Assembly: GCA_020852375.1 (NCBI GenBank)
Contig: JADZAY010000019.1
Coordinates: forward strand, 15,319 to 79,318
Source of the DNA: Candidatus Yanofskybacteria bacterium
GTDB taxonomy: Bacteria > Patescibacteriota > Minisyncoccia > 2-02-FULL-40-12 > GWA2-44-9
Direction: 5' to 3'
Length of the DNA: 64,000 nt
The position numbers and the translations under genes are program-made. Shown here one piece after another: positions 1 to 27,968 of this stretch (position 1 is the first letter of the stretch; each line of letters starts with the position of its first letter). Under the pieces are notes generated by a model. That model ran no database searches. It was not told the origin of the DNA and saw only the letters and a program-made list of their open reading frames with translations.

Positions 1-340
1 ATTTCTATCAATTAACATTGGACATTGGGATAGTACAGATTTAAGAAAGATGAGTGAGGAAGTCGGCTTAAAGGATGTTTATGATCAATACTATAATTGG
101 ACTTCCGGCTACATACACGCCAACTGGGCGGCAATGAGAGAGTCTGTGTATGAGAAATGCCTTAATCCACTTCACAGACTCCACAGACTTCCCACAAGAA
201 ATTTTACCAAGCTAACCCCAGTTATCACTGATGCTCAAAATCTCTCTAATAAGATTTTTGAGCTGCTTAGTAAAGCCTATCCTGAATTTTCAGACAGGAT
301 TAAGCCTTTAGTGAACGAGGAGGCGGCAAAAGATAAGTAA
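1..340 (+). CDS. C-terminal fragment of a hypothetical protein; the frame is open from the window edge, so the true start is upstream of the window. It lies in the low-GC islet.
   Basis: Frame 2 has no stop from nt 2 to 340. The AT-rich composition contrasts with the rest of the window. I recognise no motif. Confidence 0.4.
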   Translation, partial: FLSINIGHWDSTDLRKMSEEVGLKDVYDQYYNWTSGYIHANWAAMRESVYEKCLNPLHRLHRLPTRNFTKLTPVITDAQNLSNKIFELLSKAYPEFSDRIKPLVNEEAAKDK

Positions 341-678
341 GAAGGCATATCAGTCTCCCCGTCAAAACTGTTGCAGCGTTGCGTTGCACCTTCATTGCAT
401 CATTGTGCATCATCGGTCATCCACGGCAATCTATGATAACACGATGCAATCATTCTGTTGGAAACCGGCTTTTTCGGTAAATACTGCTTGATCCGACTGA
501 ATTTTATTACGCATTCAATTAGTGCCATTCAAAAGTTTCAAGGAGGCGAGTGCAACTGTTGCAGCAAATTGTTGCGTTTCAATTTTCACAAATTTTGAGA
601 GGGTGTCTCGTGGATATAACTAAGTTAATAAAAGCTATGACGTACTACCATTCCATCTAATCCATTCTTGTTAAAAAT

Positions 679-1065
679 ATGCTAAAAGACAATAAACTAT
701 ATTCGGACGAGTTAGCTTATGTAAAAAGTAAGGGAGCATTATTAAGAAATGTCGTTGTGCTCTCGGCAATGATAGAAGCCCATATTACTTCTCTGGCAGA
801 CAGTTTTTTGATAGCACATAAAGTTAAATACAAGCCCCGCACTGAATGGGACGAGTATGGTTTTGCAATAAGAATTATTGAAGGAAACTCTTTGTTATCA
901 AAGGAAGAACTTAAATCCATTTACGATTTTCGTAAGATTAGAAAGCTGATATTCCACAACCTATTCAAAAGTGAACTAAGCCGGTCTGACTTCAATAGTT
1001 TGATAAAACAGGCTTATAGCATCGGCCTAAAGGTAGTTGAGGCGCTGGAAGGCAAGGAGTTATGA
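679..1065 (+). CDS. Hypothetical 128-aa protein in the low-GC islet; possibly HEPN-like on the basis of an Rx4H motif in RKLIFHNLF
   Basis: Clean ORF in the AT-rich block. The R-x4-H motif is typical of HEPN RNase domains. A terminator hairpin lies downstream. Confidence 0.4.
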   Translation: MLKDNKLYSDELAYVKSKGALLRNVVVLSAMIEAHITSLADSFLIAHKVKYKPRTEWDEYGFAIRIIEGNSLLSKEELKSIYDFRKIRKLIFHNLFKSELSRSDFNSLIKQAYSIGLKVVEALEGKEL

Positions 1066-1170
1066 CCTTACGAGTAGCAACAATTGATTGATCTGTTGCA
1101 GTGATACCGTAGGATAAGGGAAAATCTCCTCCCATTTAATGGTTCGGATATGCGCCCTCCAGGCGAGCAT

Positions 1171-1216
1171 AAAGCAAAACGAGACCCGTGTGGGTCTCGT
1201 TTTGCTTTTATCGTTT
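1171..1216 (+). terminator. Rho-independent terminator; perfect 17-bp stem AAAGCAAAACGAGACCC/GGGTCTCGTTTTGCTTT followed by a T-rich tract
   Basis: The inverted repeat at 1171-1208 is followed by tatcgttt. It sits at the boundary between the low-GC and high-GC sequence. Confidence 0.6.
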
Positions 1217-1344
1217 AGGCGGGAGGGACGAGAACGCCGAACGGATGCGACGCCAGCTGGTGTCGCCCGGAGGCGGTGCCCAGCCCGAGCCGAGTGACTG
1301 ACGAGGCGAGAGGCGAGGGCGAGTCCTACCCGCGGAGCAGATAA

Positions 1345-1373
1345 TTGCATAAACCACAGAAATGTGGTATAAT
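1345..1373 (+). promoter_or_regulatory. Sigma70-like promoter TTGCAT-N17-TGgTATAAT, with an extended -10
   Basis: The -35 element TTGCAT is at 1345-1350 and the -10 element TATAAT at 1368-1373, preceded by TGG. The RBS AGGAG lies upstream of the ATG at 1451. Confidence 0.5.
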
Positions 1374-1450
1374 ACGTTGTTAGGTAATCACGCCTACAGC
1401 TGGCGGAACGCCAGTTCTTTCAAAACTGCGGAACGCAGTAGGAGTAAGCC

Positions 1451-2455
1451 ATGAAGTTGAGTGCCCGGAAGAACCGGAAGCTGATCCAGCAGTATCCGTT
1501 CGTCCACGACATCTTGGGATCACGAAGCCTGGAGCCCCTGGGCGGCGAGCGGGTTGGGGGGCAGATCGACGACCTTACCATCCGCGTGCAGAAGGCGGAC
1601 GGCGACCTGATGTTCCGCCGGGCCCACAACATCGGCTTGGCGGGCGACAACGGACACATCTTCTCGCTGAAGGGCCCGCGCAATGGCCAGGTCGGTCGGT
1701 GCGGTGAGTACATCTTCGCAATCGATGCGAGCGGAGGCATCCTGAATCGGGTCGCGTGGCCGCGCAATCAGAATGAGCGGCGCGGGAAATCGAACCTCTA
1801 CGCGTGGTCGGTGCTCTGGGCCGGACGAACCACGCTGGCGAACGGAGAGCTAGGATACACTAAGCCGATCTGTGACAAAGTCGCATACCTCGTCTGGGTC
1901 ACCGTGGAGGCGTGGCACAAGATGACCGGGGTGGCGGCCGCACCGTTCGGGGAATTCGTGGATCGCCTGGTGGAAGTCACCATCTACGGAGCGCCGGACT
2001 GCGGATTCGAGAAGCTCCAGGAGAAGTCGAACGTCTACGAGAACCTCCACCTCGACAGCAATACCCTCATGAATGCGATGCTCGACAATGACTTCGACAT
2101 CATCTCGATCAACGGCCAGCTCAGCGAGCTGTGCCAGTCCTTCCAAGACGACGTCTACTTCAGCGGCATGAAGGAGGTGCTCGATAAGGGCAACGTCCGC
2201 GGTGCCTCAGGTCAGCTGGGCCCGGTGAAGGTGCTCGTCGGCGAGATGTGCGGCTACGACCGCGTGCAGCTCGAAGACGGTTCCTGCTGGGTCTCGTTCC
2301 AGCTCCGTCCCGGCGCCAAGAACATGTACGTGCTGGGTGTCGGCGGGACGCTTCCCCAGATCCGTCGGCTCATCAAGACCGCGGTGAAGGCCTGGAGCGA
2401 GAAACCCGAAGTCCGCGCTGCCTTCAAGGCGGATCGCGAAGTCTCGGTTCTGTAG
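1451..2455 (+). CDS. Hypothetical 334-aa protein; monocistronic, with its own promoter and terminator
   Basis: The RBS AGGAGTAAGCC precedes the ATG. Third-position GC is high throughout. The stop codon is TAG, and a terminator follows. I recognise no motif. Confidence 0.6.
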   Translation: MKLSARKNRKLIQQYPFVHDILGSRSLEPLGGERVGGQIDDLTIRVQKADGDLMFRRAHNIGLAGDNGHIFSLKGPRNGQVGRCGEYIFAIDASGGILNRVAWPRNQNERRGKSNLYAWSVLWAGRTTLANGELGYTKPICDKVAYLVWVTVEAWHKMTGVAAAPFGEFVDRLVEVTIYGAPDCGFEKLQEKSNVYENLHLDSNTLMNAMLDNDFDIISINGQLSELCQSFQDDVYFSGMKEVLDKGNVRGASGQLGPVKVLVGEMCGYDRVQLEDGSCWVSFQLRPGAKNMYVLGVGGTLPQIRRLIKTAVKAWSEKPEVRAAFKADREVSVL

Positions 2456-2469
2456 CTTGACGCCACGCA

Positions 2470-2506
2470 GGGGTGCATGGAGAAATCCGTGCACCCCGCT
2501 TTTTCC
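2470..2506 (+). terminator. Rho-independent terminator, GGGGTGCA-N12-TGCACCCC followed by GCTTTTTCC
   Basis: A perfect 8-bp GC-rich stem is followed by a T-run. It lies directly downstream of the 1451..2455 stop. A second hairpin plus T-run occurs at 2554..2586. Confidence 0.6.
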
Positions 2507-2617
2507 AATACACCAGAAATCGCGGTAAATGATCTCGCACTCATACTGTCGGTGGCGACGGCATCAGCTGTCGCCTTTTCTTTTACGACACGAAAGTGGT
2601 AGATTTTTTATCTCAGC

Positions 2618-3037
2618 CTAGTGCACGCCGTGGCGCTCGAAGAATGCGCTGTATTTTTTATCTGAGAGGAGAATGTGGTTGCTGAGCCAGGTTATCGAAA
2701 AGTTTGCGAGTTCTTCCGCTAATACTTTCGTTTCTTCTGGGTTGGTCTCGAGCTGTGCGAGTAGTACCCGCACTTTGTCGCGGTAGTGGTCGTGCTCTCG
2801 GATATGCTCTGCGGTGTGCGGATAGGAAAGCTCATGAAAATACCGCTCCTCGGTCGTCAGGTGGTATACGGCATAGTGCTCAAGCTCGCGCGCGATCGCG
2901 ATACAATCCTCCGGCGCCATGTCGGGTCGCTCGATGAGGTCGATGAGGTCGTTCGTGATGCGAAAGAAGTTCTTGTGCTGCTCGTCGATCGATGCTACGC
3001 CGACGCTATATTCCTCTTTCCAGATGAATTTTTGCAT
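2618..3037 (-). CDS. Hemerythrin-like metal-binding protein of about 139 aa
   Basis: His and Glu residues are spaced as expected for a hemerythrin cation-binding domain (IDEQHKNFF, LEHYAVYHLTTEERYFHELSYPHTAEHIREHDHYRD). An ATG with the SD sequence GGAGGTGA lies 8 nt past the stop of the giant gene. The track ORF extends upstream to 3178, but the part beyond 3037 is a spurious overlap. Confidence 0.7.
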   Translation of the reverse strand: MQKFIWKEEYSVGVASIDEQHKNFFRITNDLIDLIERPDMAPEDCIAIARELEHYAVYHLTTEERYFHELSYPHTAEHIREHDHYRDKVRVLLAQLETNPEETKVLAEELANFSITWLSNHILLSDKKYSAFFERHGVH

Positions 3038-3044
3038 CGGTTGG

Positions 3045-6000
3045 TCACCTCCGATACACCGGTACCTGCGAGAGCGCGGTGTAGGGTACGGGAGACTGTG
3101 CGTACCAATTGAACTCGTTGGAGTTGATGCAGAAGACCTTCTTGAAGAAGTCGGGGTCTTCGGAGACGGCCTGGGCACCGGTCAGGTTAATGTGGTGGAG
3201 CATCCCCGTATCCTCGCCGGTGACCTGAACGGCGTAGACCTCTTCGGCGTTCGTTTCGCAGTTGCGGAAAATGCCGGAAACGGGGAACGCGTCGCGGGTG
3301 GTCGGGGGAACCGTCTTCACGACGCTCCAGCCGCCGAGGTGGCCGTAGAAGCCGAAGATGACGGGGTTCAGGAAGAGGCGCTTGTAGCCGATCTCGTTCA
3401 CGATGTAGACGTCGGGGTCGGCAGAGTCGGTGGCACTGATGACGTCCCCTTCACGGAGACCAAGCTGGTCGGGGGGTGTCGGGGTGCCGCTGCCGGAGGG
3501 TGCAGGAGCTGGAGGCGTGCTGGGTTGTGGCGCAGGAGCCGGAGTGGGTGTGGGGGTGCTCGCATCGGAGGTGTAGGTGACTGTGCAGGTGTAGCCAACA
3601 CCGGAGAGTGCGAGGAGGTGACCTTGTGAGTCGCAGTCGCCCCCGAAGATGCGAGTGTAGCCGGTGAGCGGGGTTGCGCTTACGGTGTAGGAGCCGGCCA
3701 GGGCGGGATAGCCAACATTGGGGTCGATGAGACCAGTGTTCAAGGTGAGCTGAACATCCGCAGCGGTTGCTGAGCCGCCGGAGATGGCGAGGGTGACGCG
3801 GATGGAGCCGGCGGGGTTGGAGCCGCCGCCGGACGCAACGACGCAGGTGCTCGTGAAGCCGTTGAGGTTCAGTGTGCCGGCGGTGATCGTGCAGGTGCCG
3901 GAGGTGATGAAGTTGTCTTGTAGGTCCCACGAACCACCGGCGCCGTTGAAGGTGAGGTTGCTCGCGTAGGTCTTACCGGCGGATGTGATGAGTTTTGGAC
4001 CGGTGATAGCGGTGAAGGTGAGCGGTCCCGTGTAGGAGTTGGTCATGCCGGAGCCGAGCGTGATACCACCGGCGATGTTTGCCGAGCTCGCACCGCTCCA
4101 GGTGCCCGTGAAGCCGGAGAAGCTGAGCGAGCCAATAGTGGTGTTGGCGGTATTCCAAGTGAGCGCGGCGGAGGTGCCGGTGGATGGATCGGTGACATCG
4201 CCGAAATTCGCGCCGCCGTTGAGGTTTACGGTGCCACCGGTGTCTGAGGCCATGGTGACGGAGGCAAAAGCATCGGAGGATGCCGCAGAGATTGTCTTGG
4301 CAGAAGTGGAGGTGTCGGTGATAGAGAGCCTTGGAGCGCTGGTGTAGGTGAGGTTCGTGTTCGTGGCGGTGTTCCAGACAGTGCTGATGAAGGTGAGTGT
4401 CCAGATTCCGGAGCCGGGGGTGAGCGTTCGAACATTGCTGTTGGAGCTGGAAAAGGTTCCGGTGGTGACGTTCTTATTGTTCGCATCAAAGGTGCCCGCG
4501 GTGAGCGTGAGAGCGCCGGACGTTAAGACGAGATCATCTGCGAGTTGCAGCGTCCCACCGCTTCCATTCTCAACGAATGTTGCGCCGCCTCCAATTGCTA
4601 CCCCATTCGAAGTGATGATTTGTGTACCGGAGGTCGCGGTGAAGGTAAGTGTGTGGCTCGTCAGCGTCGCTGTCATTGTTGGCGCAAGTGTGAGGTTGCC
4701 GGAGACATTGAACGGAGCGCCGACACTTTCGCTCCAGGTGCCTGTGAAGCCCGTGAAATCCAGATTATGGATGGTTTGAGCGTTTCCGCTTCCGCCGGCT
4801 GTGAAGACTGAGCTGGTGCCTGTTGCCTGCACAGACACATCACCAAAGTTTGCCGGATTCGAGCCGGTGCTTGTGAGGTTCACGGTGCCCGCGGTGGTGG
4901 GGGTGATGGTCACGGAGGTGAACGTATCATTTGCCCCCGCGATAATCGTTTTTGAGGTTGTCGTTGCGTTCAGCACGCTTAAAATGGGCGGCGTGGTCAT
5001 CGTCAGGTTCGTATTCGTGGTGGTTGTCCAAATAGTCCCTGTCCCGGTGAGTGTCCAAGTTCCAGAGCCGGGAGTGATTGTTCGGACATTGCTATTCGAG
5101 CTAGAGAAGTTGGCGGTGCTGACGGTCTGGTTATTTGCATCGAATGTCCCAGCGGTGAGTGTAAGGGTGCCAGACACAGTTACCGCTCCGCCGGCGGTAA
5201 AGGTGCCTGCGGTAAGTGTGAAGGTTGCCGCAGAGACCGTGTTTCCGGCGGTGAACGTTCCGCCGTTGATGGCAAGCGTAGAGGACGTTGAAATGGCACC
5301 GGCGTTCGTAATGGTTCCTGAGGTGAGGGTGAGTGTGCTGGTCGTTGTGAACGCATCGGCGAAGTGGAGGGTCCCGCCGGTGCCGCTCTTGCTGAATGCG
5401 GATGCAAATGACTTTCCGGCGGAGGTAACCGTCTGGGTTCCGGAAGTTCCCGTAAACGTGAAGGCCCCGGTTTGGGTCCGGGTCATCCCTGTGCTCATCG
5501 TGAGGTCGCCCGTGAAGGTCATATTGTTGGCACCAGACCATGTGCCCGCGAATCCTGTGAAATCGAGACTGTTGAATGAAAATGTCGGAAAGCCGGCGCT
5601 CGTGAAAGCGATACTCGTACCCGAAGTGACGAACACGTCATGGAATGCGATTGTCGCGGCAGTGCCACCCGTGAATGTTCCAGCACCGGACATCGAGAAT
5701 TCGATATCGTTGTAGCATCCGGCGGCGACATTGCCCGCACTCATGGTCGGTGCGGCACCGGTGAACTTCAGACGTCCGCTGGAGGTACAGGTGATGTTGG
5801 CAGTCGTAGCCATCGTCCATGCGGAACCGGTTGCGGTGACCGTCCAGAGCCCGCTCCCCATCGTCAGCGTATGTGCGGTGGCGCTGTTTGAAGAGAAGCT
5901 CGCGATAGTGACATTCTGATTGTTTGCATCAAAAGTGCCAGCCGTCATGCTCAGTGCGCCTGTCGTGACAAGCGTATCCGCAAGCTGAACCGTGCCGCCA

Positions 6001-9000
6001 GCTCCGCTCACCGCTATTGCTGAAGCAAGAGAGAGTCCGTTCGTGGTGAGCACCTGAATACCCGAAGTAGCAATGAACGTGAGGGCACCCGTGCGAGTGA
6101 GGGTTATGCCAACCGGAAAGGTAATGCTATCGGAAAGATTGATGTTCCCCGCCCCTGCCCACGTCATTGTCGAAGAGAGCGTCACAGCTCCCGTCGTTGT
6201 CACCGTCCCGCCGGTCGTCCAGGTGCCGGTAAAGCCCGTAAGGTTGATGTTGCGCGCATTGGTGGTGGTGCAGCTGCTGGTGAAGGTGACGGCCGTAGAT
6301 GCTCCCGTGCCCGCGATGTTGATATCTCGGAATGTCGAGGTCGTACATGTGGCAGAAGAAAATGTGATCAATCCAGCGCTGCTCGTCGGGACCGTAAAGT
6401 CATTAAATGTGTTTGCCGCAATCGTGATCGTTTTTCCGGTCGTGCTCGTATCGGTCACGGTGAGCGTGCTGGTGTTCGCATTCAGCGTGAGGTTTGTACT
6501 GGTCTGAGTAGTCCATACCGATCCGGTACCGGTCAGCGACCAAGTCCCAGATCCCATCGTGATCGTCCGGGCATTGCTATTAGAGCTCGAGAATGACCCG
6601 AGATTTATGTTCTGATTGTTTGCATCAAAGATGCCGCTGGTGAGTGTCAGCGCGCCGGTTACCGTCAGCGTATCGGCAGGCGAGAGGGTGCCGGCGCCTG
6701 ATTTTGTAACGACAGGAAGCGAAATACTGTTCGAGGTGATGGTCTGCGTGCCTGAAGTCCCTGTGAATACGACGCCGCCGGTGTTGGTGCGGGTGAGTCC
6801 CACAGGGAGGGTGAGGCTTGAAGTCGACAATGTAATACTGCCGGTACTTGCCCACGTCATGGTTCCCGAGAGCGTGAGGGTTCCGTTGATGACGTTAAGG
6901 TTCGTGTTCTGCGTCCAGGTGCCCGTAAAGCCCGTGAAGTTTACATTATTGAACGTAAAACTATTGTTTGTTCCGCCGAATGTGAGTCCGGCGGATGTTC
7001 CCGTTGCCGCAACGGTAAGGTCGTGCAGAGAGACTCCACCGCTCGAGCCTCCACTAAAGGTCACGACTCCACCCGCAGCGGACGCGATGGAGACATCGTA
7101 AAAAACCGTAGCAGCGCTCGTGCCACCAGGAGAGAGCGTCTTTCCGGTGGCGCTTGTATCGGTGATGGAAATGGTACTCGTTCCCACGTCGAGGGTGAGG
7201 CCGGTTACGGTGGCAGTAGTCCAGATCGTTCCCGTTCCCGTGAGCGTCCACGTTCCGGAGCCCATCGTGAGCGCGCGGGTATTCGAGTTCGTGCTCGAAA
7301 GACTGCCCATCGTCAGGTTCTGATTGTTCGCATCAAGCGTTCCGCTGGTTAGAGTGACGGCTCCTGTTGTCACGAATGCATCGGCGAATGTCAGCGTTCC
7401 CCCCGCTCCTGATTTTGTGATGGCCGACGCGAGTGAAATGCCGTTCGAGGTGATGGTCTGTGTGCCGACTGTTGCGGAAAATGTGATACCTCCGGTAGTG
7501 GTGCGCGTGAGACCAATGGGAAGCGTGAGGTTCGACGTTGAAAGCGTGACGCCACCGGTACTTGCCCACGTCATGGTTCCCGAGAGTGTGAGGGTGCCGT
7601 TGATGACGGTTGGGCTGCTATTCGTCCAGGTGCCGGTGAAGCCGGTGAAATCTAAGTTGTTCACAGTGAGCCCCTGGTTTGTGGAAGCAAAGGCATACGC
7701 CGCCGAAGTACCGGTCGCAGCAACCGTGACGTTGTTCATGGTGCAACCGCCACTCGTACAACCGGAAACGGTAACCGATCCGGCCGTGCCGGAAGGAATC
7801 GATAGGTTGTACATAACAGTACCGCTTCCCGGGAAGGAAAGTGTTTTTGTGGTAGTGGTCGCATTGGTGACAGAAACCGTGCTGGTATTCACATTAAGGG
7901 TGAAATTTGTGCTGGTGGTAGCATCCCATACGGTGCCCACACTCGTGAGCGTCCACGTTCCCGAGCCCATAGATAAGGTGCGGGCGTTCGTGTTATTGCT
8001 CGAGAATATGCCCATCGTCAGGTTCTGGTTGTTCGCGTCGATGGTGCCGCTGGTCAGAGTCAAAGTCCCGGTTGTCACGAAGACATCGGCGAATGAGAGC
8101 GTTCCTCCAGCTCCTGACTTTGTGATTGCGCTCGTGAGGGTGTTCCCGTTTGAAGTAATGGTTTGGGTCCCGGAAGTCCCCGAAAACGCAATAGTCCCGG
8201 TGAAGGAGTTGGTGAGACCGATAGGAAGTGTCAGTCCGCTTGTTGAGAGGGTGATGGTGGCGCTGCCCGCCCAGGTCATGGTGCCGGAAAGCGTAAGGGT
8301 GCCCGCGACGGAAACCGTGCCGGAGCTGTGCGTCCAGGTGCCCGTAAAGCCGGTAAAGTCAAGGTTGTTGAACACATAGGCTACGTTTGTTGTGGCATAG
8401 GCGAGTTGAGCAGATGTACCTGTCGCGGCGACCGTGACGTTGTGGATTGCACACCCTCCGGAGGCGCAGCCAGAAAGCGTGACCGTACCACCGGCACCTG
8501 AGGGAATTGAAAGGTCGTATAAGAGCGTCGCCGTTGAGGAAAAAGCGAGAGTCTTTCCGGTGGTGCTCGAATCGGTGACGGAGACGGTGCTCGTCCCGAC
8601 ATTTAACGTCAGATTGGTTACCGTAGATGTGGACCAGATCGTTCCCGTTCCGGTGAGCGTCCAGGTGCCTGAGCCCATGTTGAGGGTGCGGGTGCCGGTT
8701 CCCGTACCACTAAACGTGCCCATCGTCGGACTGTAGGTCGCAAAATCGAGCGTGCCCGTGAAGGCGCCCATGGTAATAGAGGTGACGGTAGGGTCATAGG
8801 CAAGGGTAACTGTGCCACCACCGGAGGAACCGTCGAACGTGACGGTATCCGCAGCACCGGGGACCGATTGACCCCCCGCTCCTCCGGAAGTTGCCGCCCA
8901 GTGGGTGGTATCGGCGGCATCCCAGGTGCCGGTGCCACCGACCCAATAACGGGAAGCAGCCGAAGCTTCGTGCGCCGAAAGAAGGAGCGAGAGCGCAAAG

Positions 9001-9056
9001 CCGATGCCGAAGAGCGTGATGAATGTTTTGCGGCGCGCAAACATGCCGAATGACAA
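3045..9056 (-). CDS. Giant secreted cell-surface repeat protein, about 2000 aa. It has a signal peptide, about eight tandem Thr/Gly/Ser-rich beta-strand repeats of roughly 200 aa each (adhesin or autotransporter-passenger-like), a Pro/Thr linker, and a conserved 140-aa C-terminal domain.
   Basis: A single uninterrupted ORF. The N-terminus reads MFARRKTFITLFGIGFALSLLLSAHEASA, and the true start may be the ATG at 9044 or the TTG at 9056. The reiterated motifs include GSGTWTLT, NLDFTGFTGTWT, GTQTITSNG, ITKSGAGGTL and TSGTxDANNQN. The C-terminal domain (KRLFLNP, YGHLGG, FRNCETN, VTGED, LHH, FCINS) is shared with 50064..51161. Confidence 0.85.
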   Translation of the reverse strand: MSFGMFARRKTFITLFGIGFALSLLLSAHEASAASRYWVGGTGTWDAADTTHWAATSGGAGGQSVPGAADTVTFDGSSGGGTVTLAYDPTVTSITMGAFTGTLDFATYSPTMGTFSGTGTGTRTLNMGSGTWTLTGTGTIWSTSTVTNLTLNVGTSTVSVTDSSTTGKTLAFSSTATLLYDLSIPSGAGGTVTLSGCASGGCAIHNVTVAATGTSAQLAYATTNVAYVFNNLDFTGFTGTWTHSSGTVSVAGTLTLSGTMTWAGSATITLSTSGLTLPIGLTNSFTGTIAFSGTSGTQTITSNGNTLTSAITKSGAGGTLSFADVFVTTGTLTLTSGTIDANNQNLTMGIFSSNNTNARTLSMGSGTWTLTSVGTVWDATTSTNFTLNVNTSTVSVTNATTTTKTLSFPGSGTVMYNLSIPSGTAGSVTVSGCTSGGCTMNNVTVAATGTSAAYAFASTNQGLTVNNLDFTGFTGTWTNSSPTVINGTLTLSGTMTWASTGGVTLSTSNLTLPIGLTRTTTGGITFSATVGTQTITSNGISLASAITKSGAGGTLTFADAFVTTGAVTLTSGTLDANNQNLTMGSLSSTNSNTRALTMGSGTWTLTGTGTIWTTATVTGLTLDVGTSTISITDTSATGKTLSPGGTSAATVFYDVSIASAAGGVVTFSGGSSGGVSLHDLTVAATGTSAGLTFGGTNNSFTFNNVNFTGFTGTWTQNTNLNVINGTLTLSGTMTWASTGSITLSTSSLTLPVGLTRTNTGGVVFTGTSGTQTITSNSISLPVVTKSGAGTLSPADTLTVTGALTLTSGIFDANNQNINLGSFSSSNSNARTITMGSGTWSLTGTGSVWTTQTSTNLTLNANTSTLTVTDTSTTGKTITIAANTFNDFTVPTSSAGLITFSSATCTTSTFRDINIAGTGASTAVTFTSSCTTTNARNINLTGFTGTWTTGGTVTTTGAVTLSSTMTWAGAGNINLSDSITFPVGITLTRTGALTFIATSGIQVLTTNGLSLASAIAVSGAGGTVQLADTLVTTGALSMTAGTFDANNQNVTIASFSSNSATAHTLTMGSGLWTVTATGSAWTMATTANITCTSSGRLKFTGAAPTMSAGNVAAGCYNDIEFSMSGAGTFTGGTAATIAFHDVFVTSGTSIAFTSAGFPTFSFNSLDFTGFAGTWSGANNMTFTGDLTMSTGMTRTQTGAFTFTGTSGTQTVTSAGKSFASAFSKSGTGGTLHFADAFTTTSTLTLTSGTITNAGAISTSSTLAINGGTFTAGNTVSAATFTLTAGTFTAGGAVTVSGTLTLTAGTFDANNQTVSTANFSSSNSNVRTITPGSGTWTLTGTGTIWTTTTNTNLTMTTPPILSVLNATTTSKTIIAGANDTFTSVTITPTTAGTVNLTSTGSNPANFGDVSVQATGTSSVFTAGGSGNAQTIHNLDFTGFTGTWSESVGAPFNVSGNLTLAPTMTATLTSHTLTFTATSGTQIITSNGVAIGGGATFVENGSGGTLQLADDLVLTSGALTLTAGTFDANNKNVTTGTFSSSNSNVRTLTPGSGIWTLTFISTVWNTATNTNLTYTSAPRLSITDTSTSAKTISAASSDAFASVTMASDTGGTVNLNGGANFGDVTDPSTGTSAALTWNTANTTIGSLSFSGFTGTWSGASSANIAGGITLGSGMTNSYTGPLTFTAITGPKLITSAGKTYASNLTFNGAGGSWDLQDNFITSGTCTITAGTLNLNGFTSTCVVASGGGSNPAGSIRVTLAISGGSATAADVQLTLNTGLIDPNVGYPALAGSYTVSATPLTGYTRIFGGDCDSQGHLLALSGVGYTCTVTYTSDASTPTPTPAPAPQPSTPPAPAPSGSGTPTPPDQLGLREGDVISATDSADPDVYIVNEIGYKRLFLNPVIFGFYGHLGGWSVVKTVPPTTRDAFPVSGIFRNCETNAEEVYAVQVTGEDTGMLHHINLTGAQAVSEDPDFFKKVFCINSNEFNWYAQSPVPYTALSQVPVYRR

Positions 9057-9310
9057 TGATTTTCCTACTCATTCTACTTCACTCCGCACGAGAAGGGAAT
9101 AGAAATCGGGGGATTTCTTTTTCTTGAGATATGTGGGATAATCAGGGAGTAGCTATCACAACAATATTTCCATGGCGAAACGATATGGAGCGATGGGTCG
9201 GAACGCTACAAAGCGCCGATCGCACCCTCGAAAGACGGCAAAGCGATTGGCCGCGAAGCGGGCAACGCTCGCCAGCCGTTCAGCAAAGAAAAAGCGATAA
9301 TCTCCCTTCT

Positions 9311-9367
9311 CACACAGAGCCCTTCGGGGTTCTGTGTGTTACGACAAAAACTCCCCTTTGCGGGGAG
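9311..9367 (-). terminator. Tandem hairpins on the minus strand ending in a U-run; terminator for the small gene at 9368..9640
   Basis: The hairpin CTCCCC-tttgc-GGGGAG at 9351-9367 is followed on the minus strand by TTTTT. A second hairpin, CACACAGAGCCC-ttcg-GGGTTCTGTGTG, lies at 9311-9338. The first hairpin starts immediately after the TAG stop. Confidence 0.5.
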
Positions 9368-9640
9368 CTAAAATGCTCGGTGAGGGCCCTCATGGTGTTC
9401 TGGCAGGGAGCAGGTGAGGCGAATGTAGCCCGAGAGTCCGATGGGCTGTCCGCAGCGGTGCCACGGGGAGAGCGGCGTAGCAGCGGCGATGATCTCGTTG
9501 AGCTTTTGGCGAAGCTGTTCGCCGGTGATAGATTTTGAGCCACGGCAGACGGGGCAGAAAGTGCGCCCCGACAGCATGCCATCTTCAAGTCCGTCGGGAA
9601 TCCATCCCACGCCTCTGCATTCGTAGCAGCGGAAGCGCAT
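9368..9640 (-). CDS. Small zinc-ribbon protein of about 90 aa, with two CxxC pairs
   Basis: A strong SD sequence AGGAGG lies 6 nt before the ATG. The protein begins MRFRCYECRG and contains FCPVCRG. A terminator hairpin follows the stop. The gene lies upstream of the giant gene on the same strand. Confidence 0.55.
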   Translation of the reverse strand: MRFRCYECRGVGWIPDGLEDGMLSGRTFCPVCRGSKSITGEQLRQKLNEIIAAATPLSPWHRCGQPIGLSGYIRLTCSLPEHHEGPHRAF

Positions 9641-9904
9641 GTGCGTCCTCCTCGTATGAACTTCGCCAACGGTACCAGCCCCGCGTGAGGGGTGCAAGGT
9701 CGGTTGTATTGCTGTATAGGAGGAGTACGGTGCGGGTATGAGCCGTATTCGTCGCTGGTTTCTCTATATTACGAACAACGAGGAAATCTCCCGGCACGAG
9801 GAGCTGTTCGATATCCTCTTTTTCATCATCAATACTGCGGCGCTCGTGTTCGGTGTCGTCATGTTCATCGTCCACGACGAGCCCCAATGGATACCCGTGT
9901 TGGT

Positions 9905-9954
9905 CATTGAATACAGTTGGGCGCTTGATAACATGCGCCACAACCGTCCGTAGC
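9905..9954 (+). repeat. Copy A of a roughly 52-bp direct repeat, TCATTGaATAcAGTTGGGCGCTTGATAACaTGCGCCACAaCCGTCCGTAG. It contains the internal palindrome GGCGC-N10-GCGCC.
   Basis: Copy A is 45 of 50 identical to 26552..26601. It lies 38 bp upstream of the first gene of the plus-strand array. Confidence 0.7.
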
Positions 9955-9991
9955 TATGGGGGGCGTGTTGCGTGTGATACAATAGAGGCAT

Positions 9992-11560
9992 ATGCCTTGG
10001 AGGGTGCGTGTTTCACGAATCCGGTGGCTGTCTTTTTGGCAACGCGCCAAGGAGTACTGCTCAAAGCGGAGATTTCTCTCTACTACGAAGAGAGGTGCCT
10101 TGAGCGTCTTAGTGGTTGCGCTGGCTGCAACCCAGACGACCATTGTGCACGCGGGGGTTTCGTATTACTACTCACCGCTGTGCCTTGGGAGTCTGGTGAA
10201 TTCTCGGTATGCGGAGGGCCCGCCCGAAACGGGAGGTGATCCGGCGCAGTTCACGGGGGAAAATTCTGCGCAGGTTCAGAACACGAGCGGCCAAATATAC
10301 TGTGGGAGATTCGCGTCTTCCGACGCTCCGTCCGGTGATGTCCGATCTATTGCTCTTCGCATTGCGGCCACTACATCTGATGCTCTTCGCGGAACTCCTC
10401 CGGTCGAGGTTTTCGACGGGACGACCCTAGATGGATTTGATGCGAGCGGAGTTTTTATACCGCCCCAGGAGACCGACTCCGCTCCAGAAGGGGAGTCTCC
10501 CGTCGCATCAGGATCTGAGGCGCCGGCGCTCGTTCCGGTTGAGGAGCCGTCTCCGATTGCAACCTCGTCTCTTCCCGAAGAGACGCCGCTCTCGATCGAG
10601 CCGGTCGTCCTTGATCCAGTCATTTCGCCATTCGAGTCTCCTGTGCCATCAGATACCGCGCAGCCACCAGCAGCTTCTCCGTTCGTGGAGGAGCCCGCAG
10701 TCGTACCGACCCAAGAGCCCGTCCTAGAGCCCGAGCCCGCCCCAGAGCCGTCAGCGTTTTTGAAGTGGCTGTTTCCGGTAGCTCATGCGGGAGAGATCGC
10801 ATCCGATTCTGCGAGCTTGGACGAGGTCTTTACTGTGCGATATTCGATCGACGGAGCAACATGGATCCCGGCAGGTTCGGTGAAGAGGGGCCAGACGAGC
10901 GATATCCGCTTCGATCTCCCCACTGAGGCGTTCGAAGCCCTTGATAATTTCCAGGTTGCCATTTTCACCGGTCTTGGTCTTGAGACCTCAACGCTCTACG
11001 TTGATAGTATCTGGCTTGAGGTCGAATATGACTCTCCAATTGTTTCGTTCATCGGGGATGTCGCCGCGACGATCGTCGATGCGATCATCCCGGAAGAGGC
11101 GCCCTCCACTTCCGCGGATGCACTAGCGACTCCAACCCCGACGCCGAAGGTGAAGCGACTGGTTTGGGAGTTCGGTTCCTTGGGGAGCGAGGTCTCGACC
11201 GAGCAGGAGCTTCCCTGGTATCCCTCCGGAGCCTCGAGCGCCGACGCTTCCGGACCTGCCAAGGGTGAGCTGCGTATCTCCGGTGACCACATTTCCTTGA
11301 GTGGATCGTGCACCGAGACGCACTTTGTTGTGCTGGTGTTTCGTGGAAAAGAAGACTATGTGCGCGACCCGGCGTCTGCGCTTTACAACGCGGCACTTCC
11401 GTGCGACAGTGGATTACTTTCGTACGAGATGAGCTCGCTTCCGGTGCCGATAGAGGACGGAACGTATTGGCTTATGATCGGCCAGCAGGGCCGTGGTCCG
11501 TGGGAGCCGATCAGCTCGCTGTATCCGGTTCGCATCACCGTGCGAGAGGTTGAGGAGTAA
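9992..11560 (+). CDS. Secreted or membrane-anchored hypothetical protein of 522 aa with a Pro/Glu/Ser-rich low-complexity linker
   Basis: An N-terminal hydrophobic segment ALSVLVVALAATQTTIVHA is followed by a PE-rich linker and a globular C-terminal domain. The RBS AGAGG is present, and the extended -10 element TGaTACAAT at 9975-9983 implies a leaderless or near-leaderless mRNA. Confidence 0.6.
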   Translation: MPWRVRVSRIRWLSFWQRAKEYCSKRRFLSTTKRGALSVLVVALAATQTTIVHAGVSYYYSPLCLGSLVNSRYAEGPPETGGDPAQFTGENSAQVQNTSGQIYCGRFASSDAPSGDVRSIALRIAATTSDALRGTPPVEVFDGTTLDGFDASGVFIPPQETDSAPEGESPVASGSEAPALVPVEEPSPIATSSLPEETPLSIEPVVLDPVISPFESPVPSDTAQPPAASPFVEEPAVVPTQEPVLEPEPAPEPSAFLKWLFPVAHAGEIASDSASLDEVFTVRYSIDGATWIPAGSVKRGQTSDIRFDLPTEAFEALDNFQVAIFTGLGLETSTLYVDSIWLEVEYDSPIVSFIGDVAATIVDAIIPEEAPSTSADALATPTPTPKVKRLVWEFGSLGSEVSTEQELPWYPSGASSADASGPAKGELRISGDHISLSGSCTETHFVVLVFRGKEDYVRDPASALYNAALPCDSGLLSYEMSSLPVPIEDGTYWLMIGQQGRGPWEPISSLYPVRITVREVEE

Positions 11561-11569
11561 CGTTGCGAC

Positions 11570-12202
11570 ATGATCGTCTCAAAGCAGCTCGAACGAATGA
11601 ACGCGGTGGTCGTATTTCGGAGTGACGGGTTTTCTGTCCCCGATAATGCGGCATTCTCGGCGCTGTATCCCGGTCCCGCCGGGAAGGGGATGCGATTCGT
11701 TGAGGATCAGATCACGCGAACGTCCGTGCTGAGCGTTCCGTCGTTGCGACTTGTTTTCGCGGTTGAGGGGAATCGCTTTCGAGTCGACGACGATTCGGGT
11801 CAGGATCCCGGATCGAGCCCGCTACCTGATCATTTCCGGCAAGCTCTCGAAGGGCTCTTTCCTGGGGCGCGTCCGGAAAGCTACGGGTTTAATTTTGATG
11901 TGTACTTCCGTTTCGGGTCGGTTCTTCCGAGCGGTGCAGTATTTCGCTCTTTTGTGAGCGACGAGATCTTTCGCGAACGAGATCTACGCGATGTCGGTGT
12001 TCAGTTCACGATGGAGCGAAATGGCGGCGCGCAGCGCGAGACCTATTTCATAAAATTTGTCGATCCGCTCGAGATCGCGGTGCACGCGAATATCCATGTG
12101 CCGTCTGAGGATATACCGAGCAGTGACGGGCTTCGAGCTCGGTTGGCAGCGGCGTACAATGATATCGAAGGAGTTGTGAATACGCTCAAGCTAAACGCAT
12201 GA
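11570..12202 (+). CDS. Hypothetical protein of 210 aa
   Basis: Tightly linked in the array, and its stop overlaps the next start as ATGA. Third-position GC is high. Confidence 0.5.
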   Translation: MIVSKQLERMNAVVVFRSDGFSVPDNAAFSALYPGPAGKGMRFVEDQITRTSVLSVPSLRLVFAVEGNRFRVDDDSGQDPGSSPLPDHFRQALEGLFPGARPESYGFNFDVYFRFGSVLPSGAVFRSFVSDEIFRERDLRDVGVQFTMERNGGAQRETYFIKFVDPLEIAVHANIHVPSEDIPSSDGLRARLAAAYNDIEGVVNTLKLNA

Positions 12203-13773
12203 CCATCACTTCTCGCGGCGTCACGTTGAATCGCAGGCGGTGGGGGGCGATCGGGCTCCTGTTCCTTATTGCGGTCGAGGGGATTCTTTCCCTGTTCCTT
12301 GTACTTTCACTTGCCGCAGATGCACTTTTTCCTCAAGGGGCGCGTGCCGCGGTGGGGGTAAGTCGCAAGCTTTCCTATCAAGGGAGACTCACCGACTTGA
12401 GCGGAACTGCGCTTGGAGGTAGCTCGGGGACGAACTACTGCTTCCGGTTCCGGATCTACGACGCCGCCACCGGCGGGAGTCAGGTGTGGCCGCTGGGTGG
12501 CGCTACGCCTGCATCGACCACCGTGAAGGTGAAAGACGGGATTTTTGCGACTGCGATCGGAGATGCGAACGTGCTGAACTACGACTTTACCGCGAACGAC
12601 ACGTTGTATCTTCAAGTGGAGGTGAATAATACGCCGACCACGTGCAGTGGCAGCTGGGAGACTCTTGATGTGCGCCAGCGCCTCGATGCCGTCGCGTATG
12701 CTCGTACTGCTGAATTCGTATACTCTGACCTGCTTCGCGTCGCCTCGGGGTCCGCTGCGGTTCAGATCGGGACCGGCGCAGGGCAGGCAACGCCGATCTT
12801 CTTGGGCTTGGATGTGAAGAACACTGATGAGGCGGTCGGGGCTTCGTGCACCACGAATGGGCGGCTGTGGTACAACTCATCTGATTCTCGGGCACGGGTG
12901 TGCCAAGGCGGGATCATTCAAGATATTGTTGACGGTCTTTTGGTTCGGGACGAGGGTGTCGACCAGGGGCGCGCATCGACGGCCCTCGATTTTACCGGTG
13001 GTGGCGTTTCGGCGTCTCGTGGCGCCGGGGGAGTTATCAATGTGAACATTCCGGTGGGGAGCCTAAGCGGGGGGACCACGCGAGCGACGCTTGGTGAGAT
13101 CGTTTTCTCGAACGCGAACGGCGTCTCGTTCGGTGTGAACGGCCAGACCATCACGGCGAGCGTGAACGCGGGCGGCGGTGGAGGGGGGTTCCGCGAATAT
13201 GCGGCGACGAACATGCAGTCATGGAACTCTGCATATTGGGCGGTTGGAGCGAATACGACGCATAGTACGGTTCTGGTTGCCCCTCTTCAGATTCGCGGCT
13301 CCGTTTCCGTAAAGACGCTTGGGTTTATGCTGTCCAGAAGTAGTGGCACAACATTGGCACATACGCTCTATGCGGGAGTGTATTCATTAAATGGAAGTAC
13401 GCTTTCGCTTATCAGCTCAACATCCGGGAACTTCAGTCTTTCAACAACTGCACAATGGGCCGCGGCGCGTATGTACCAACTGACCGGATTGAGCGGCCTC
13501 GAGCTGACCCCTGGTCAGTACTGGGTTGCCGTCCGCGCGGCTGTTACGAGCGGCTCCATTCATCTCTTGGGACGAGCGAGTGCGTCGGGGAACTTTTCAG
13601 GGAGAGTCCTGCCGGGAACGAATAGCTCCGCTACGAATTCATCAGTACAGTGGTTTCCGGGTCAGGGTTGGTTTTCCTCAGGGGCCCTCCCGAACTCCAT
13701 GGCGCTTTCAAACATCAACAACGCCGGGACGCTCGGGCGCGGAGCTCCGTTCATAACGATCACCGAAATATAG
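12199..13773 (+). CDS. Membrane-anchored cell-surface protein of 524 aa with a single N-terminal TM helix; the N-terminal motif LSYQGRLTD...F.F.IYDA.TGG..WP is conserved
   Basis: The TM helix GAIGLLFLIAVEGILSLFLVLSLAA is followed by a large extracytoplasmic Gly/Ser/Thr-rich domain. Translationally coupled to both neighbours. Confidence 0.6.
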   Translation: MTITSRGVTLNRRRWGAIGLLFLIAVEGILSLFLVLSLAADALFPQGARAAVGVSRKLSYQGRLTDLSGTALGGSSGTNYCFRFRIYDAATGGSQVWPLGGATPASTTVKVKDGIFATAIGDANVLNYDFTANDTLYLQVEVNNTPTTCSGSWETLDVRQRLDAVAYARTAEFVYSDLLRVASGSAAVQIGTGAGQATPIFLGLDVKNTDEAVGASCTTNGRLWYNSSDSRARVCQGGIIQDIVDGLLVRDEGVDQGRASTALDFTGGGVSASRGAGGVINVNIPVGSLSGGTTRATLGEIVFSNANGVSFGVNGQTITASVNAGGGGGGFREYAATNMQSWNSAYWAVGANTTHSTVLVAPLQIRGSVSVKTLGFMLSRSSGTTLAHTLYAGVYSLNGSTLSLISSTSGNFSLSTTAQWAAARMYQLTGLSGLELTPGQYWVAVRAAVTSGSIHLLGRASASGNFSGRVLPGTNSSATNSSVQWFPGQGWFSSGALPNSMALSNINNAGTLGRGAPFITITEI

Positions 13774-13774
13774 G

Positions 13775-14587
13775 ATGGACGATCATCATGTTCGAATTCA
13801 TCGTTTGGACGACGTGCTCAAGGACGCATACCATGAGCGGGTCGCCTACAACGCGATGCCGCGCGGTGAGCACTTCCGAGATCTCTCCACGGTCATTATT
13901 ACGGCGGTTCGCGGCGATCGGAGAGAGACGAGGAGTATGAATTGTCCGAAGTGCAATCACCTAATCACCTATGAGCACTTCAGTTCGAACGGGTTCCATC
14001 CGATGGTCGTGGAGTCATGGAAGCGTATGATTCGTCCCATGAACCAGCCTATCGTCGAGGTGGTTTCTTCGGGGTATGAGGTCGGCGACGCCTACGAACA
14101 CTCCATTGAGGCGGTTCTGAACAATCCCGATCTTGCGAAATTCAAGTACATTCTCTTTATTGAGGACGATATGATCATCCCGTGGATGCCTGGTACGCGT
14201 GGCCCTTTGTTCGAGCTGTATCGGCATATGGATACTTACGATGTTGCCGGGGCACTGTATTGGACGAAGGGCGAGGTTTCCATGCCGCTTATTTTTGGTG
14301 ACCCTGCTCGCGGTACGGATAACTACGAGGCGCTTACGAATTGGGATTCGGGGGATGTGGTCGAGTGTAACGGTACCGGCATGGGATTTACGCTTTTCAA
14401 GATGGATTTGTTCAAGGACGCGCGCGTTGACCGTCCCTGGTTCCATACACTTCAGAATGTGGACGAGGGTGGAATGACGCAGGACCTGTATTTCTATCGA
14501 AAGATTCGGAGGCTGGGGTATCGTATTTGTGTTGACACATCGATCAAGTGCGGGCATCTCGATGTGAGAACGGGGCAGGTGTATTGA
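13775..14587 (+). CDS. Glycosyltransferase-like protein, GT-A fold, family 2-like
   Basis: The N-terminus TVIITAVRGDRR is Rossmann-like. A DxD-like motif FIEDDMI is present, as is a C-terminal QDLYFYRKIRRLGYRI resembling the GT2 ED..R...G.RI motif. The start lies 2 nt after the upstream stop. Confidence 0.5.
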   Translation: MDDHHVRIHRLDDVLKDAYHERVAYNAMPRGEHFRDLSTVIITAVRGDRRETRSMNCPKCNHLITYEHFSSNGFHPMVVESWKRMIRPMNQPIVEVVSSGYEVGDAYEHSIEAVLNNPDLAKFKYILFIEDDMIIPWMPGTRGPLFELYRHMDTYDVAGALYWTKGEVSMPLIFGDPARGTDNYEALTNWDSGDVVECNGTGMGFTLFKMDLFKDARVDRPWFHTLQNVDEGGMTQDLYFYRKIRRLGYRICVDTSIKCGHLDVRTGQVY

Positions 14588-14588
14588 T

Positions 14589-15563
14589 ATGGCGCGATCG
14601 CATAACCTAATCCTTCTCGCGGCGCTCGGGGGCATATTGGGTGTTGGTCTTGTCGCGCTCGCCGCGCAAAATCGTTCGTTGCGCAGTCAGCTTGCGGCGC
14701 ACAGCGCCTCTAGCTCGTTTGAGCTTTTGAATCCGGTGAAGGCGCTGAAGATCAATCGGCACTTCATCATCGACTTCTCTGATCTTCGAAAGAGCTTCGA
14801 TCGAATTGTGAAGAAGTATCCCCAGAAAACGTACCTCTATTTCATGTATCTGAGCAATGGTGGCTGGGTTGGAGTGAACGAGCGGGATCAATTTGTTGCG
14901 GCGAGCCTCATCAAAGTTCCGCTCGCGATGGCATTCTATAAGGCGGTGGAAGATGGCCGTATCAATCTTTCCCAGGAATACGCACTCGCGGAGACCGATC
15001 TTGATGATGGATTCGGTGATCTGTATAAAGTCGGTGCCGGTAAGAGCTATTCCGCTCGTGACCTGCTCCGCATCATACTGTCTCGTTCGGATAACACCGC
15101 CATGCGCGCCGTGACGACTCTTCTGCGGAGGGTTGGTATCGATGATCCGCTCAGTGATGTGTACGCCGAGTTGGGGTGGGAGGTGTTGCCTCCGCTGGTC
15201 GCAAATGGAGATGCTTCGGGCATTAATTATTCGGAGATCAGTGTGAAAGTGCTCTCGAATATGCTTCTCGCACTCTATAATGCTACCTATATCAGCAGCG
15301 AACACTCGCAGGAGATCCTCAAGGATCTGAGCGAATCAGAATTTAATGATTCGATTCCTGGGGGGGTTCCCAATGGCACTATTGTTGCGCACAAGATAGG
15401 GGCTTCGGCAAATGACCAGACATTCTCCGACTGTGGCATCGTGTATGTTCCCGGAAGACCCTATCTCCTGTGTCTTGGCTCGAACGGAGGAGATCAGGAT
15501 CGGGCGAACCGTTTCATGGCGGAGGTTTCACGCGCGGTATTCGATTTTGTTACTACCCACTAA
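14589..15563 (+). CDS. Membrane-anchored serine hydrolase of the class A beta-lactamase / PBP-like family
   Basis: The SxxK motif is AASLIKVP, the SDN motif is SRSDNTA, and a KTG-like motif is HKIGAS. An N-terminal TM anchor is present. Confidence 0.65.
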   Translation: MARSHNLILLAALGGILGVGLVALAAQNRSLRSQLAAHSASSSFELLNPVKALKINRHFIIDFSDLRKSFDRIVKKYPQKTYLYFMYLSNGGWVGVNERDQFVAASLIKVPLAMAFYKAVEDGRINLSQEYALAETDLDDGFGDLYKVGAGKSYSARDLLRIILSRSDNTAMRAVTTLLRRVGIDDPLSDVYAELGWEVLPPLVANGDASGINYSEISVKVLSNMLLALYNATYISSEHSQEILKDLSESEFNDSIPGGVPNGTIVAHKIGASANDQTFSDCGIVYVPGRPYLLCLGSNGGDQDRANRFMAEVSRAVFDFVTTH

Positions 15564-15566
15564 TCT

Positions 15567-16076: not shown

Positions 16077-16077
16077 C

Positions 16078-16554: not shown

Positions 16555-16563
16555 ATACGCATC

Positions 16564-17022: not shown

Positions 17023-17049
17023 GCTCCATTTCGTGTATACTGGAGGCAC

Positions 17050-20135: not shown

Positions 20136-20190
20136 CGGTTATCCACAGCCGAATGGGCTGCTCGTGGTGTAAAATAAGAGCATCAACACT

Positions 20191-20958: not shown

Positions 20959-20997
20959 CGGCGTTGTACTGCGCAATGCGCACGACAGGCGGCGCAG

Positions 20998-21026
20998 TTG
21001 GCTGTTTTTCTGTACGGTGCTATAGT
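20998..21026 (+). promoter_or_regulatory. Sigma70-like promoter TTGGCT-N17-TATAGT; the ATG lies about 7 nt downstream, giving a near-leaderless mRNA
   Basis: The -35 element is at 20998-21003 and the -10 element at 21021-21026. The ATG at 21033 follows. Confidence 0.45.
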
Positions 21027-21032
21027 GCCAGC

Positions 21033-23721: not shown

Positions 23722-23752
23722 TGCGCACTGGACATATGGTATACTAGAGGGT

Positions 23753-26540: not shown

Positions 26541-26551
26541 TCCTTGCCGGA

Positions 26552-26601: not shown

Positions 26602-26604
26602 GAG

Positions 26605-26847: not shown

Positions 26848-26860
26848 GTTTGCGGGGTTA

Positions 26861-26889: not shown

Positions 26890-26897
26890 ATATCGCT

Positions 26898-27962: not shown

Positions 27963-27968
27963 TCCATT

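Follow-up and report, generated by a model that had tools for sequence, protein, structure and literature searches.

A duplicated alpha/beta domain at the ends of unrelated secreted proteins of Yanofskybacteria-type Patescibacteria: a candidate envelope-binding module

The last 139 residues of a giant secreted protein encoded on a stretch of 64,000 nucleotides from a Candidatus Yanofskybacteria bacterium (assembly GCA_020852375.1, contig JADZAY010000019.1, positions 15,319 to 79,318; the whole 64-kb stretch is termed the window and is numbered 1..64000) constitute a domain, called the didomain in the following, which is a diverged tandem duplication of a unit of about 55 aa with the topology beta-beta-beta-alpha-alpha-beta-alpha. 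The didomain family is genuine and large, is confined to a narrow range of taxa and has no curated entry. Its members sit at one end of many unrelated secreted proteins, and we give an even chance to the reading, drawn by analogy, that the didomain would be a non-covalent binding module keeping its passenger on the envelope of the producing cell.

Two copies in the window and a family in Patescibacteria

The two didomain copies of the window and the proteins that carry them are described by the following features.

3045..9056, minus strand: giant secreted protein, 2003 aa as the longest open reading frame (ORF) with a TTG start at 9056, from the ORF list and translation
3465..3563, minus strand: linker of the giant protein rich in Pro, Thr and Ala (STPTPTPAPAPQPSTPPAPAPSGSGTPTPPDQ), between passenger and terminal domain, from the translation
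3279..3464, minus strand: half 1 of the didomain, giant protein aa 1865-1926, predicted beta-beta-beta-alpha-alpha-beta-alpha, with the motifs DPD, YKRLFLNP and IFxFYGHLGG
3087..3278, minus strand: half 2 of the didomain, giant protein aa 1927-1990, predicted topology as in half 1, with an enlarged hairpin bearing GED
Domain residues 69 and 112 (giant protein aa 1933 and 1976), minus strand: Cys pair in half 2, identified by covariation
3048..3086, minus strand: C-terminal tail of the didomain, PVPYTALSQVPVYRR, the last residues of the giant protein
50064..51182, minus strand: second secreted protein, 372 aa as the longest ORF and 365 aa if the start is ATG 51161, from the ORF list and translation
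50586..51047, minus strand: second didomain copy, aa 46-199 of the 372-aa ORF, about 12 aa past the AAA motif of the predicted signal peptide
50934..50981, minus strand: insertion in the second copy, about 12-16 aa (aa ~68-83, including KLKGFTGYATPGANYGD), located in half 1 in the hairpin between strands 2 and 3

The original prediction had described the two copies as strongly similar, and BLASTP with compositional adjustment established genuine homology. The C-terminal 184 aa of the giant protein aligned to the 372-aa protein with 86 identities in 183 positions (47%, E=3e-52), the last 139 aa corresponding to aa 46-199 of the second protein, and all six motif blocks quoted in that prediction lie within the alignment. 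The span proposed for the domain, 3045..3470, was correct, since it comprises the domain at 3048..3464 and the stop codon at 3045..3047; so was its placement, C-terminal behind a Pro/Thr linker in the giant protein and N-terminal in the 372-aa protein, as read from both translations. The end points 50064..51161 given for the second protein need amendment: the protein is real, while the length of 372 aa belongs to the ORF 50064..51182 and position 51161 is an internal Met8, from which the product has 365 aa. A tblastn search of the whole window with the domain identified two minus-strand copies and no others, 3464..3048 and 51047..50586, with 50% identity over 154 aa between the second copy and the giant one (E=2e-47). 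Both were full-length matches to a hidden Markov model (HMM) of the family, with the family motifs DPD, YKRLFLNP, YGHLGG, NCE, GED, FCIN..E..Y and a terminal Y.R; the giant copy scored 231 bits over HMM positions 2-138, and the second copy 194 bits, split by its insertion. This insertion (KLKGFTGYATPGANYGD), evident as a BLASTP gap and as the split in the HMM alignment, was confined to the second window copy among the sequences inspected and is without counterpart in P0262, the closest relative of the 372-aa protein among those in which the parts stand in identical order.

The uncharacterised status assigned to the domain at the outset held against Pfam, NCBIfam, PHROGs and the PDB sequences. 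Neither NCBIfam nor PHROGs returned anything, five different queries of the PDB sequences gave chance-level matches only, and the lone match in Pfam-A at E<=1 was SH3_2 (E=0.22, 11.7 bits against a cutoff of 21.8), so that membership of SH3b was rejected. The curated wall-anchoring modules (SLH, LysM, CW_binding_1/2, PG_binding_1, SH3b, GW and LPXTG) were rejected as identities for the domain in the same manner, no profile scoring above threshold and the didomain containing neither a transmembrane (TM) segment nor LPXTG. Literature searches found no description of the didomain, and homologs are annotated at source as 'hypothetical protein' or as 'SH3 domain-containing', the latter owing to a separate SH3_3 domain.

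A word-indexed homolog search returned 178 matches (best E=1e-61), and an exhaustive profile search of 1.84 billion representatives yielded a family of 1397 cluster representatives at E<=1e-3, with 339 at E<=1e-30. Didomain identity within the family is 50-70% across more than 1000 protein clusters. Among GTDB species representatives, 187 genomic stretches encode the didomain, and assembly and taxonomy tallies were made on the best 80 of these 187, which derive from about 58 assemblies. Nearly all were assigned to Candidatus Yanofskybacteria, the Parcubacteria group, Paceibacterota, Minisyncoccia, Spechtbacteria, Terrybacteria or generic 'Patescibacteria'; at least two loci were present in 18 assemblies and three in four. 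A single didomain-encoding contig was found in IMG/VR (IMGVR_UViG_3300005573_000006, L081, 91 kb). Its gene at 5896..8118 (plus strand) encodes a 740-aa protein consisting of a signal peptide, an N-terminal didomain and Ig-like-looking repeats, and is flanked by ORFs for a GroEL-like chaperonin, an Hsp20-like protein and two HNH-type products; the contig may represent a Parcubacterium phage or mobile element with a surface protein, or may be misclassified. Phage lysins gave no support for wall binding, as this sole IMG/VR match is not an endolysin.

Predicted fold, internal duplication and conserved residues

An AlphaFold2 (AF2) model of the didomain, calculated from a 52-sequence alignment, reached a predicted local distance difference test (pLDDT) score of 94.5 and a predicted template modelling (pTM) score of 0.86, and a two-unit fold is thus predicted with high confidence. 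In the model the strand (E) and helix (H) order E-E-E-H-H-E-H at residues 8-58 is repeated at residues 65-120, each half comprising four strands and two to three short helices in the order b-b-b-a-a-b-a; half 1 modelled alone gave a moderate score (pLDDT 79). Direct profile comparison of half 1 with half 2 was not significant (hhalign E=0.044 over 8 columns). Second, much more divergent didomain copies are present in four family members (P0121 aa 41-173, P0130 aa 376-481, P0224 aa 177-282 and P0245 aa 175-283), and in P0224, P0245 and P0130 the degenerate copy immediately follows the canonical didomain and has halves of its own that are plainly alike. A generic profile of the repeat of about 55 aa matched half 1 with an hhalign probability of 96.8% (E=2.6e-10) and half 2 with a probability of 93.9% (E=1.5e-7, 53 columns). 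With a single-repeat local HMM, 142 of 261 half-1 matches were obtained at an independent E-value (iE) below 1e-3, and half 2 was matched weakly, in register. Joint alignment of the halves placed DP-x-[VI]Y in each and [IV]-x-[IV]-[ND]-x-x-E-[LF]-x-x-Y in both, and aligned G-x-K-[KR] of half 1 with the enlarged GED...LH[HW] hairpin of half 2. Because both halves match one generic repeat and show these equivalences in the joint alignment, the didomain is a diverged tandem duplication of this unit. The degenerate repeat of P0224, P0245 and P0130, which is homologous to both halves, is itself uncurated and absent from Pfam; it is much less conserved than the didomain and has neither the Cys pair nor the GED hairpin nor YGHLGG.

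Conservation was tabulated over 234 full-length family members and 138 columns. Of these columns, 46 are at least 90% conserved and 12 are invariant (D16, D18, I21, N23, R29, F37, Y40, D85, F111, N114, E117 and Y121), and the Y and R of the tail are conserved in at least 94% of members. Not all of the His and Cys residues that the original prediction had called invariant are so. His42 is 96% conserved, whereas His90 is retained in 82% and replaced by Arg in 15%, position 91 is Trp rather than His in 82%, and the two Cys residues are jointly lost in 11%: both Cys69 and Cys112 were present in 207 members, neither in 26 and a single one in 1. Because the two Cys residues covary, they are read as a structural disulfide within half 2. 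Several of the positions put forward as invariant, namely DP before the VY strand, the K/R of YKRL, F37, Y40 and the IN..E..Y motif, recur in the degenerate repeat. As they stand there at aligned positions, these polar residues would be inherited signatures of the fold or of ligand contact, as opposed to a newly assembled catalytic centre.

These observations bear on the proposal, made from the His, Cys, Glu and Asp residues, that the domain is an enzymatic or metal-binding module in which conserved Asp, Glu and His form an active or ion site acting on the envelope or on the passenger. We consider this very improbable, given a Cys pair that covaries as a disulfide, the variation at His90 and His91, and polar residues that recur in the degenerate repeat. 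A Cys/His hydrolase or metal enzyme was rejected, since no invariant and independently conserved Cys/His nucleophile or ligand is present. In favour of a small enzyme or metal-binding domain are the 12 invariant columns in 234 members, including D16, D18, D85, E117, N114 and R29, together with the high conservation of His42; the D-P-D motif and the E-D pair could chelate Ca2+, and no known binding family matches the didomain by sequence. A structural Ca2+ site would also be compatible with an anchoring role.

A weak structural resemblance links the unit to envelope-associated proteins. In the AF2 model each didomain half fits a PlyCB/EccB-repeat-like unit, of about 50-70 aa with a four-stranded antiparallel sheet packed against two helices, and the repeat of EccB1 consists of a four-stranded sheet and two helices (PMC4769845). 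The R1-R4 repeats of EccB from ESX/type VII secretion (PDB IDs: 3x3m, 7np7 and 6sgy) are among the closest known systems. Likeness to the PlyCB-type cell-wall-binding domains (CBDs) of endolysins (PlyCB, 4f87; LysIME-EF1 CBD, 6ist; Lys170 CBD, 7d55) is weak and structural only. The latter are single units that act as homo-oligomers; they are encoded by Firmicutes phages and stand either at a C-terminus or in a subunit of their own. The didomain, by comparison, joins two units, has a putative disulfide, is encoded on patescibacterial chromosomes and occupies either the N- or the C-terminus. EccB, PlyCB and the endolysin CBDs were absent at E<=10 from phmmer and hmmsearch searches of all PDB sequences with the domain, its halves, the generic repeat and a mixed profile, and the didomain did not match Pfam T7SS_ESX1_EccB. 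The theme common to the fold neighbours is a small envelope-associated binding unit; however, scores are low and no sequence profile bridges to them, and they are treated as a resemblance, not as membership. What is new is the two-unit arrangement of a small alpha/beta repeat with weak structural kin only; terminal anchoring and targeting modules are well known as a kind.

Placement on unrelated passengers and readings of function

Didomain position was classified in 141 representatives, a domain ending within 15 aa of the protein end being counted as C-terminal. It was N-terminal only in 93 (N-type), at the C-terminal end only in 39 (C-type), internal in five and present in two copies in four, and in related genomic loci 33 of 86 didomain copies end less than 12 aa before the stop codon. 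A C-terminal sorting signal of the type IX secretion C-terminal domain (T9SS CTD), PEP-CTERM or GlyGly-CTERM kind was rejected, as the didomain is N-terminal in these 93 representatives and in the second window copy. In N-type proteins the didomain begins a median of 6 aa (range 1-13) past the N-terminal hydrophobic segment, typically right after an AxA motif (75/96 with a detected segment), and neither a C-terminal TM segment nor LPXTG was found in 95 of 96. Among the C-type proteins, an N-terminal signal was present in 30 of 40, and in 27 of 40 a stretch rich in P/T/S/A/G lay within the 30 aa preceding the didomain. Partner domains in 71 scanned members were varied and extracellular, and included PG_binding_1 (seven), Kre9_KNH (Ig-like; six), fn3 (five) and SH3_3 (three), in addition to PKD, CarboxypepD_reg, subtilase, trypsin, Laminin_G_3 (LamG) and beta-propellers. 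The remainders of the didomain-bearing proteins are mutually unrelated, and the didomain is far better conserved than its passengers.

It is on account of the terminal placement, the linker before C-terminal copies and the lack of another anchor in N-type proteins, and likewise of the many unrelated passengers, the several paralogs per genome and the conservation far above that of the passengers, that the didomain is read here as an anchoring module. In Yanofskybacteria-type Patescibacteria the didomain is fused at a single terminus to a wide range of secreted proteins that are unrelated to one another: it follows the signal peptide directly, or it closes the protein at the C-terminus, where a flexible Pro/Thr linker precedes it. 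Its role would be non-catalytic. By binding to some conserved constituent of the producer's envelope, which could be peptidoglycan, a wall glycan or a receptor protein, it would hold the passenger at the cell surface. It would thus be a functional analogue of the SLH, CWB2, LysM and endolysin wall-binding modules of Gram-positive bacteria. In the window it would tether the 2003-aa fibrous protein, rich in Thr, Gly and Ser, by its C-terminus and the 372-aa Cys-rich protein by its N-terminus. We infer the binding, its ligand and retention as its purpose. SLH, CWB2 and LysM modules follow the same logic, in that they are conserved, stand at either end of many unrelated secreted proteins, often with a linker, occur as several paralogs per genome and are conserved far beyond their passengers. 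In contrast to them, the didomain has no Pfam sequence match, is acidic rather than basic and found none of these modules among the structural matches returned; the analogy would be one of function.

Several points weigh against anchoring. The architecture counts derive from metagenome gene calls, and most short 'standalone' matches are fragmentary contigs. The didomain is acidic (median net charge -5, pI about 5.0), unlike many basic wall-binding modules, which argues against simple electrostatic binding to anionic polymers. The dozen highly conserved polar residues (D16, D18, N23, R29, D85, N114, E117, Y40 and Y121 among them) would fit a catalytic or ion site too, and didomain proteins in which no other anchor is recognised might just end up free in the medium. 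In favour of anchoring, on the other hand, the didomain is rich in aromatic residues (14.5% F/W/Y), as glycan-binding modules often are.

Alternatively, the didomain could be an adhesive head, a distal tip that recognises host or partner cells at their surface, or a substrate polymer. Attachment to the patescibacterial cell would then come from the opposite end of the protein or from a signal anchor left uncleaved. Patescibacteria are widely inferred to be episymbionts, a lifestyle that would need adhesins, and in the giant protein about 1800 aa of fibrous repeats, and then a flexible linker, precede the didomain at the far end. Its fold neighbours bind the walls of other cells, and like many lectins it is both aromatic-rich and acidic. 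However, the didomain is the most conserved part across paralogs and the roughly 58 assemblies, whereas host-recognition tips usually diversify. N-type didomains, 1-13 aa past the hydrophobic core of the signal, would be membrane-proximal if the signal were uncleaved, and 95 of 96 such proteins have no C-terminal anchor. Moreover, paralogs in one genome place the module on different passengers, including proteases, for which a common address tag is a better fit. On this evidence an adhesive tip appears unlikely.

Oligomeric fold neighbours raise another possibility, namely that the didomain docks onto a dedicated surface receptor protein or self-associates into rings or lattices in place of binding a wall polymer. 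The CBDs of the endolysins Lys170 and LysIME-EF1 act as oligomers (tetramers). The third of these closest neighbours, PlyCB, forms an octameric ring (PMC4769845). P0130, a member of the family, has a cohesin domain in addition (Pfam E=2.5e-5), and the strong conservation of a large surface would fit a protein interface. Against docking or oligomerisation, clustering of neighbour genes in 80 loci identified no universally conserved partner gene, with clusters occurring in at most 19 loci, and these neighbours look like general envelope or glycosylation genes; we judge it quite unlikely, somewhat more so than an adhesive tip. By eye, the recurrent neighbours (10-19 of 80 loci; L052, L053, L063 and L003) comprised a GT1-like glycosyltransferase and a PMT/TPR-type membrane glycosyltransferase, and others were a Thr/Gly/Ser-rich repeat protein and a protein with a lamin-tail domain and beta-propeller, which suggests that didomain neighbourhoods are envelope- or glycosylation-related.

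Anchoring to the producer's own envelope is the reading retained here. In a broader and more tentative form, which we hold to be somewhat more probably wrong than right, the didomain would serve Yanofskybacteria and related Paceibacteria as a universal address tag, within a surface-display system specific to this lineage, and would recognise an envelope polymer or receptor yet to be described, much as SLH domains recognise pyruvylated secondary cell wall polymer (SCWP) in Firmicutes.

The carrier proteins, their surroundings and implications

The passenger regions of the two window proteins and the module adjoining the second didomain comprise the following further features.

8958..9044, minus strand: predicted signal peptide of the giant protein, MFARRKTFITLFGIGFALSLLLSAHEASA, with an AxA motif at its end, read from the translation
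3564..8957, minus strand: repeat body of the giant protein, seven repeats of about 235 aa marked by GSGxW[TS][LV]T and DANNQN
50412..50582, minus strand: Cys-rich mini-modules of the 372-aa protein, CQVRPVCLDATPSCSIPEPVEGWC ... GCYYQQVQCIRAPCDPVLVCP, directly C-terminal to the didomain, from the translation

The giant protein consists, in order, of a predicted signal peptide, seven Thr/Gly/Ser-rich repeats of about 235 aa, the Pro/Thr linker and the C-terminal didomain. Its true start is likely to be ATG 9044 and not TTG 9056, and its N-terminus has the features expected of a signal peptide, with a basic n-region, a hydrophobic core and an ASA motif. The repeat signature GSGxW[TS][LV]T begins at aa 128, 364, 599, 835, 1067, 1330 and 1548. 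Thr, Gly and Ser together account for 47-49% of the repeats, 48.7% of the repeat body (first 1830 aa) and 46.4% of the whole protein, and the repeat body contains only four Glu residues. No Pfam or NCBIfam match was obtained for this passenger, which is probably a beta-helical or fibrous surface protein.

In the 372-aa protein, a predicted signal peptide is followed by the didomain and the Cys-rich mini-module, after which come a Pro/Thr linker and a C-terminal region of uncharacterised nature. The mini-motifs have the consensus CQxRPxCLDxxPxCxxPEPxEGWC and PGCYYQQVQC[IF]xAPCxP[IV]LVCP and are not represented in Pfam (best match DUF281, E=0.39). P0029 and P0047 have such motifs on the N-terminal side of the didomain, and the second motif occurs alone, without a didomain, at the N-terminus of P0264 and P0266-P0268, which are otherwise unrelated secreted proteins; the motifs resemble disulfide-knot modules that have been shuffled. 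A search with the final 174 residues of the 372-aa protein gave only seven weak relatives, in which the Cys-rich motifs recur but the last ~110 aa have no counterpart. A sigma-70-like match (TTGTGA-16-TATACT, a consensus match only) is located at 51197..51170 on the minus strand. Because it ends 9 nt upstream of ATG 51161, the ORF may in reality encode the 365-aa protein beginning MKKLLL, possibly from a leaderless or very short-leader mRNA. Divergent to this gene are two small adjacent ORFs on the plus strand, 51529..52083 (184 aa) and 52086..52589 (167 aa), both with an HExxH motif (VAHEVAHM and FAHELAHT) and with 28% mutual identity over 50 aa around it (E=0.002). Neither had a Pfam match at 1e-3, and the two may represent paired small metalloprotease-like proteins that no curated family covers.

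Elsewhere in the window, three genes on the plus strand are envelope-related: 14589..15563 encodes a class-A beta-lactamase-family protein (Beta-lactamase2, E=2e-40), 17880..20135 a Wzy_C O-antigen-ligase-like membrane protein and 24420..26540 a dCache/PKD-containing protein. The large ORFs 9992..11560, 12199..13773 and 13775..14587 had no Pfam match, and no tRNA genes were found in the window. GC skew is positive in every 4-kb block of the window (+0.05 to +0.145), and GC content rises from 54% to 61% along its length; the value of about 58% for the window seems high for Parcubacteria.

To our knowledge, almost nothing is known of how Patescibacteria (candidate phyla radiation, CPR) build or decorate their envelope or hold partner cells. 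Current annotation labels didomain proteins 'hypothetical', and the didomain therefore merits a curated family entry. If it is an anchoring tag, its presence would allow the surface proteins of Yanofskybacteria-type organisms to be listed by a simple criterion on sequence, would point to a conserved envelope ligand not yet described and, in the form of fusions of the domain with green fluorescent protein (GFP), would offer a handle for labelling or capturing uncultured cells. Should the more tentative view of a universal address tag be right as well, the displayed surfaceome would be every carrier, including candidate S-layer-like proteins of ~1100-1200 aa, giant fibrous adhesins, proteases and small Cys-rich proteins, and the surface proteome of an uncultured episymbiont clade would become readable directly from genomes.

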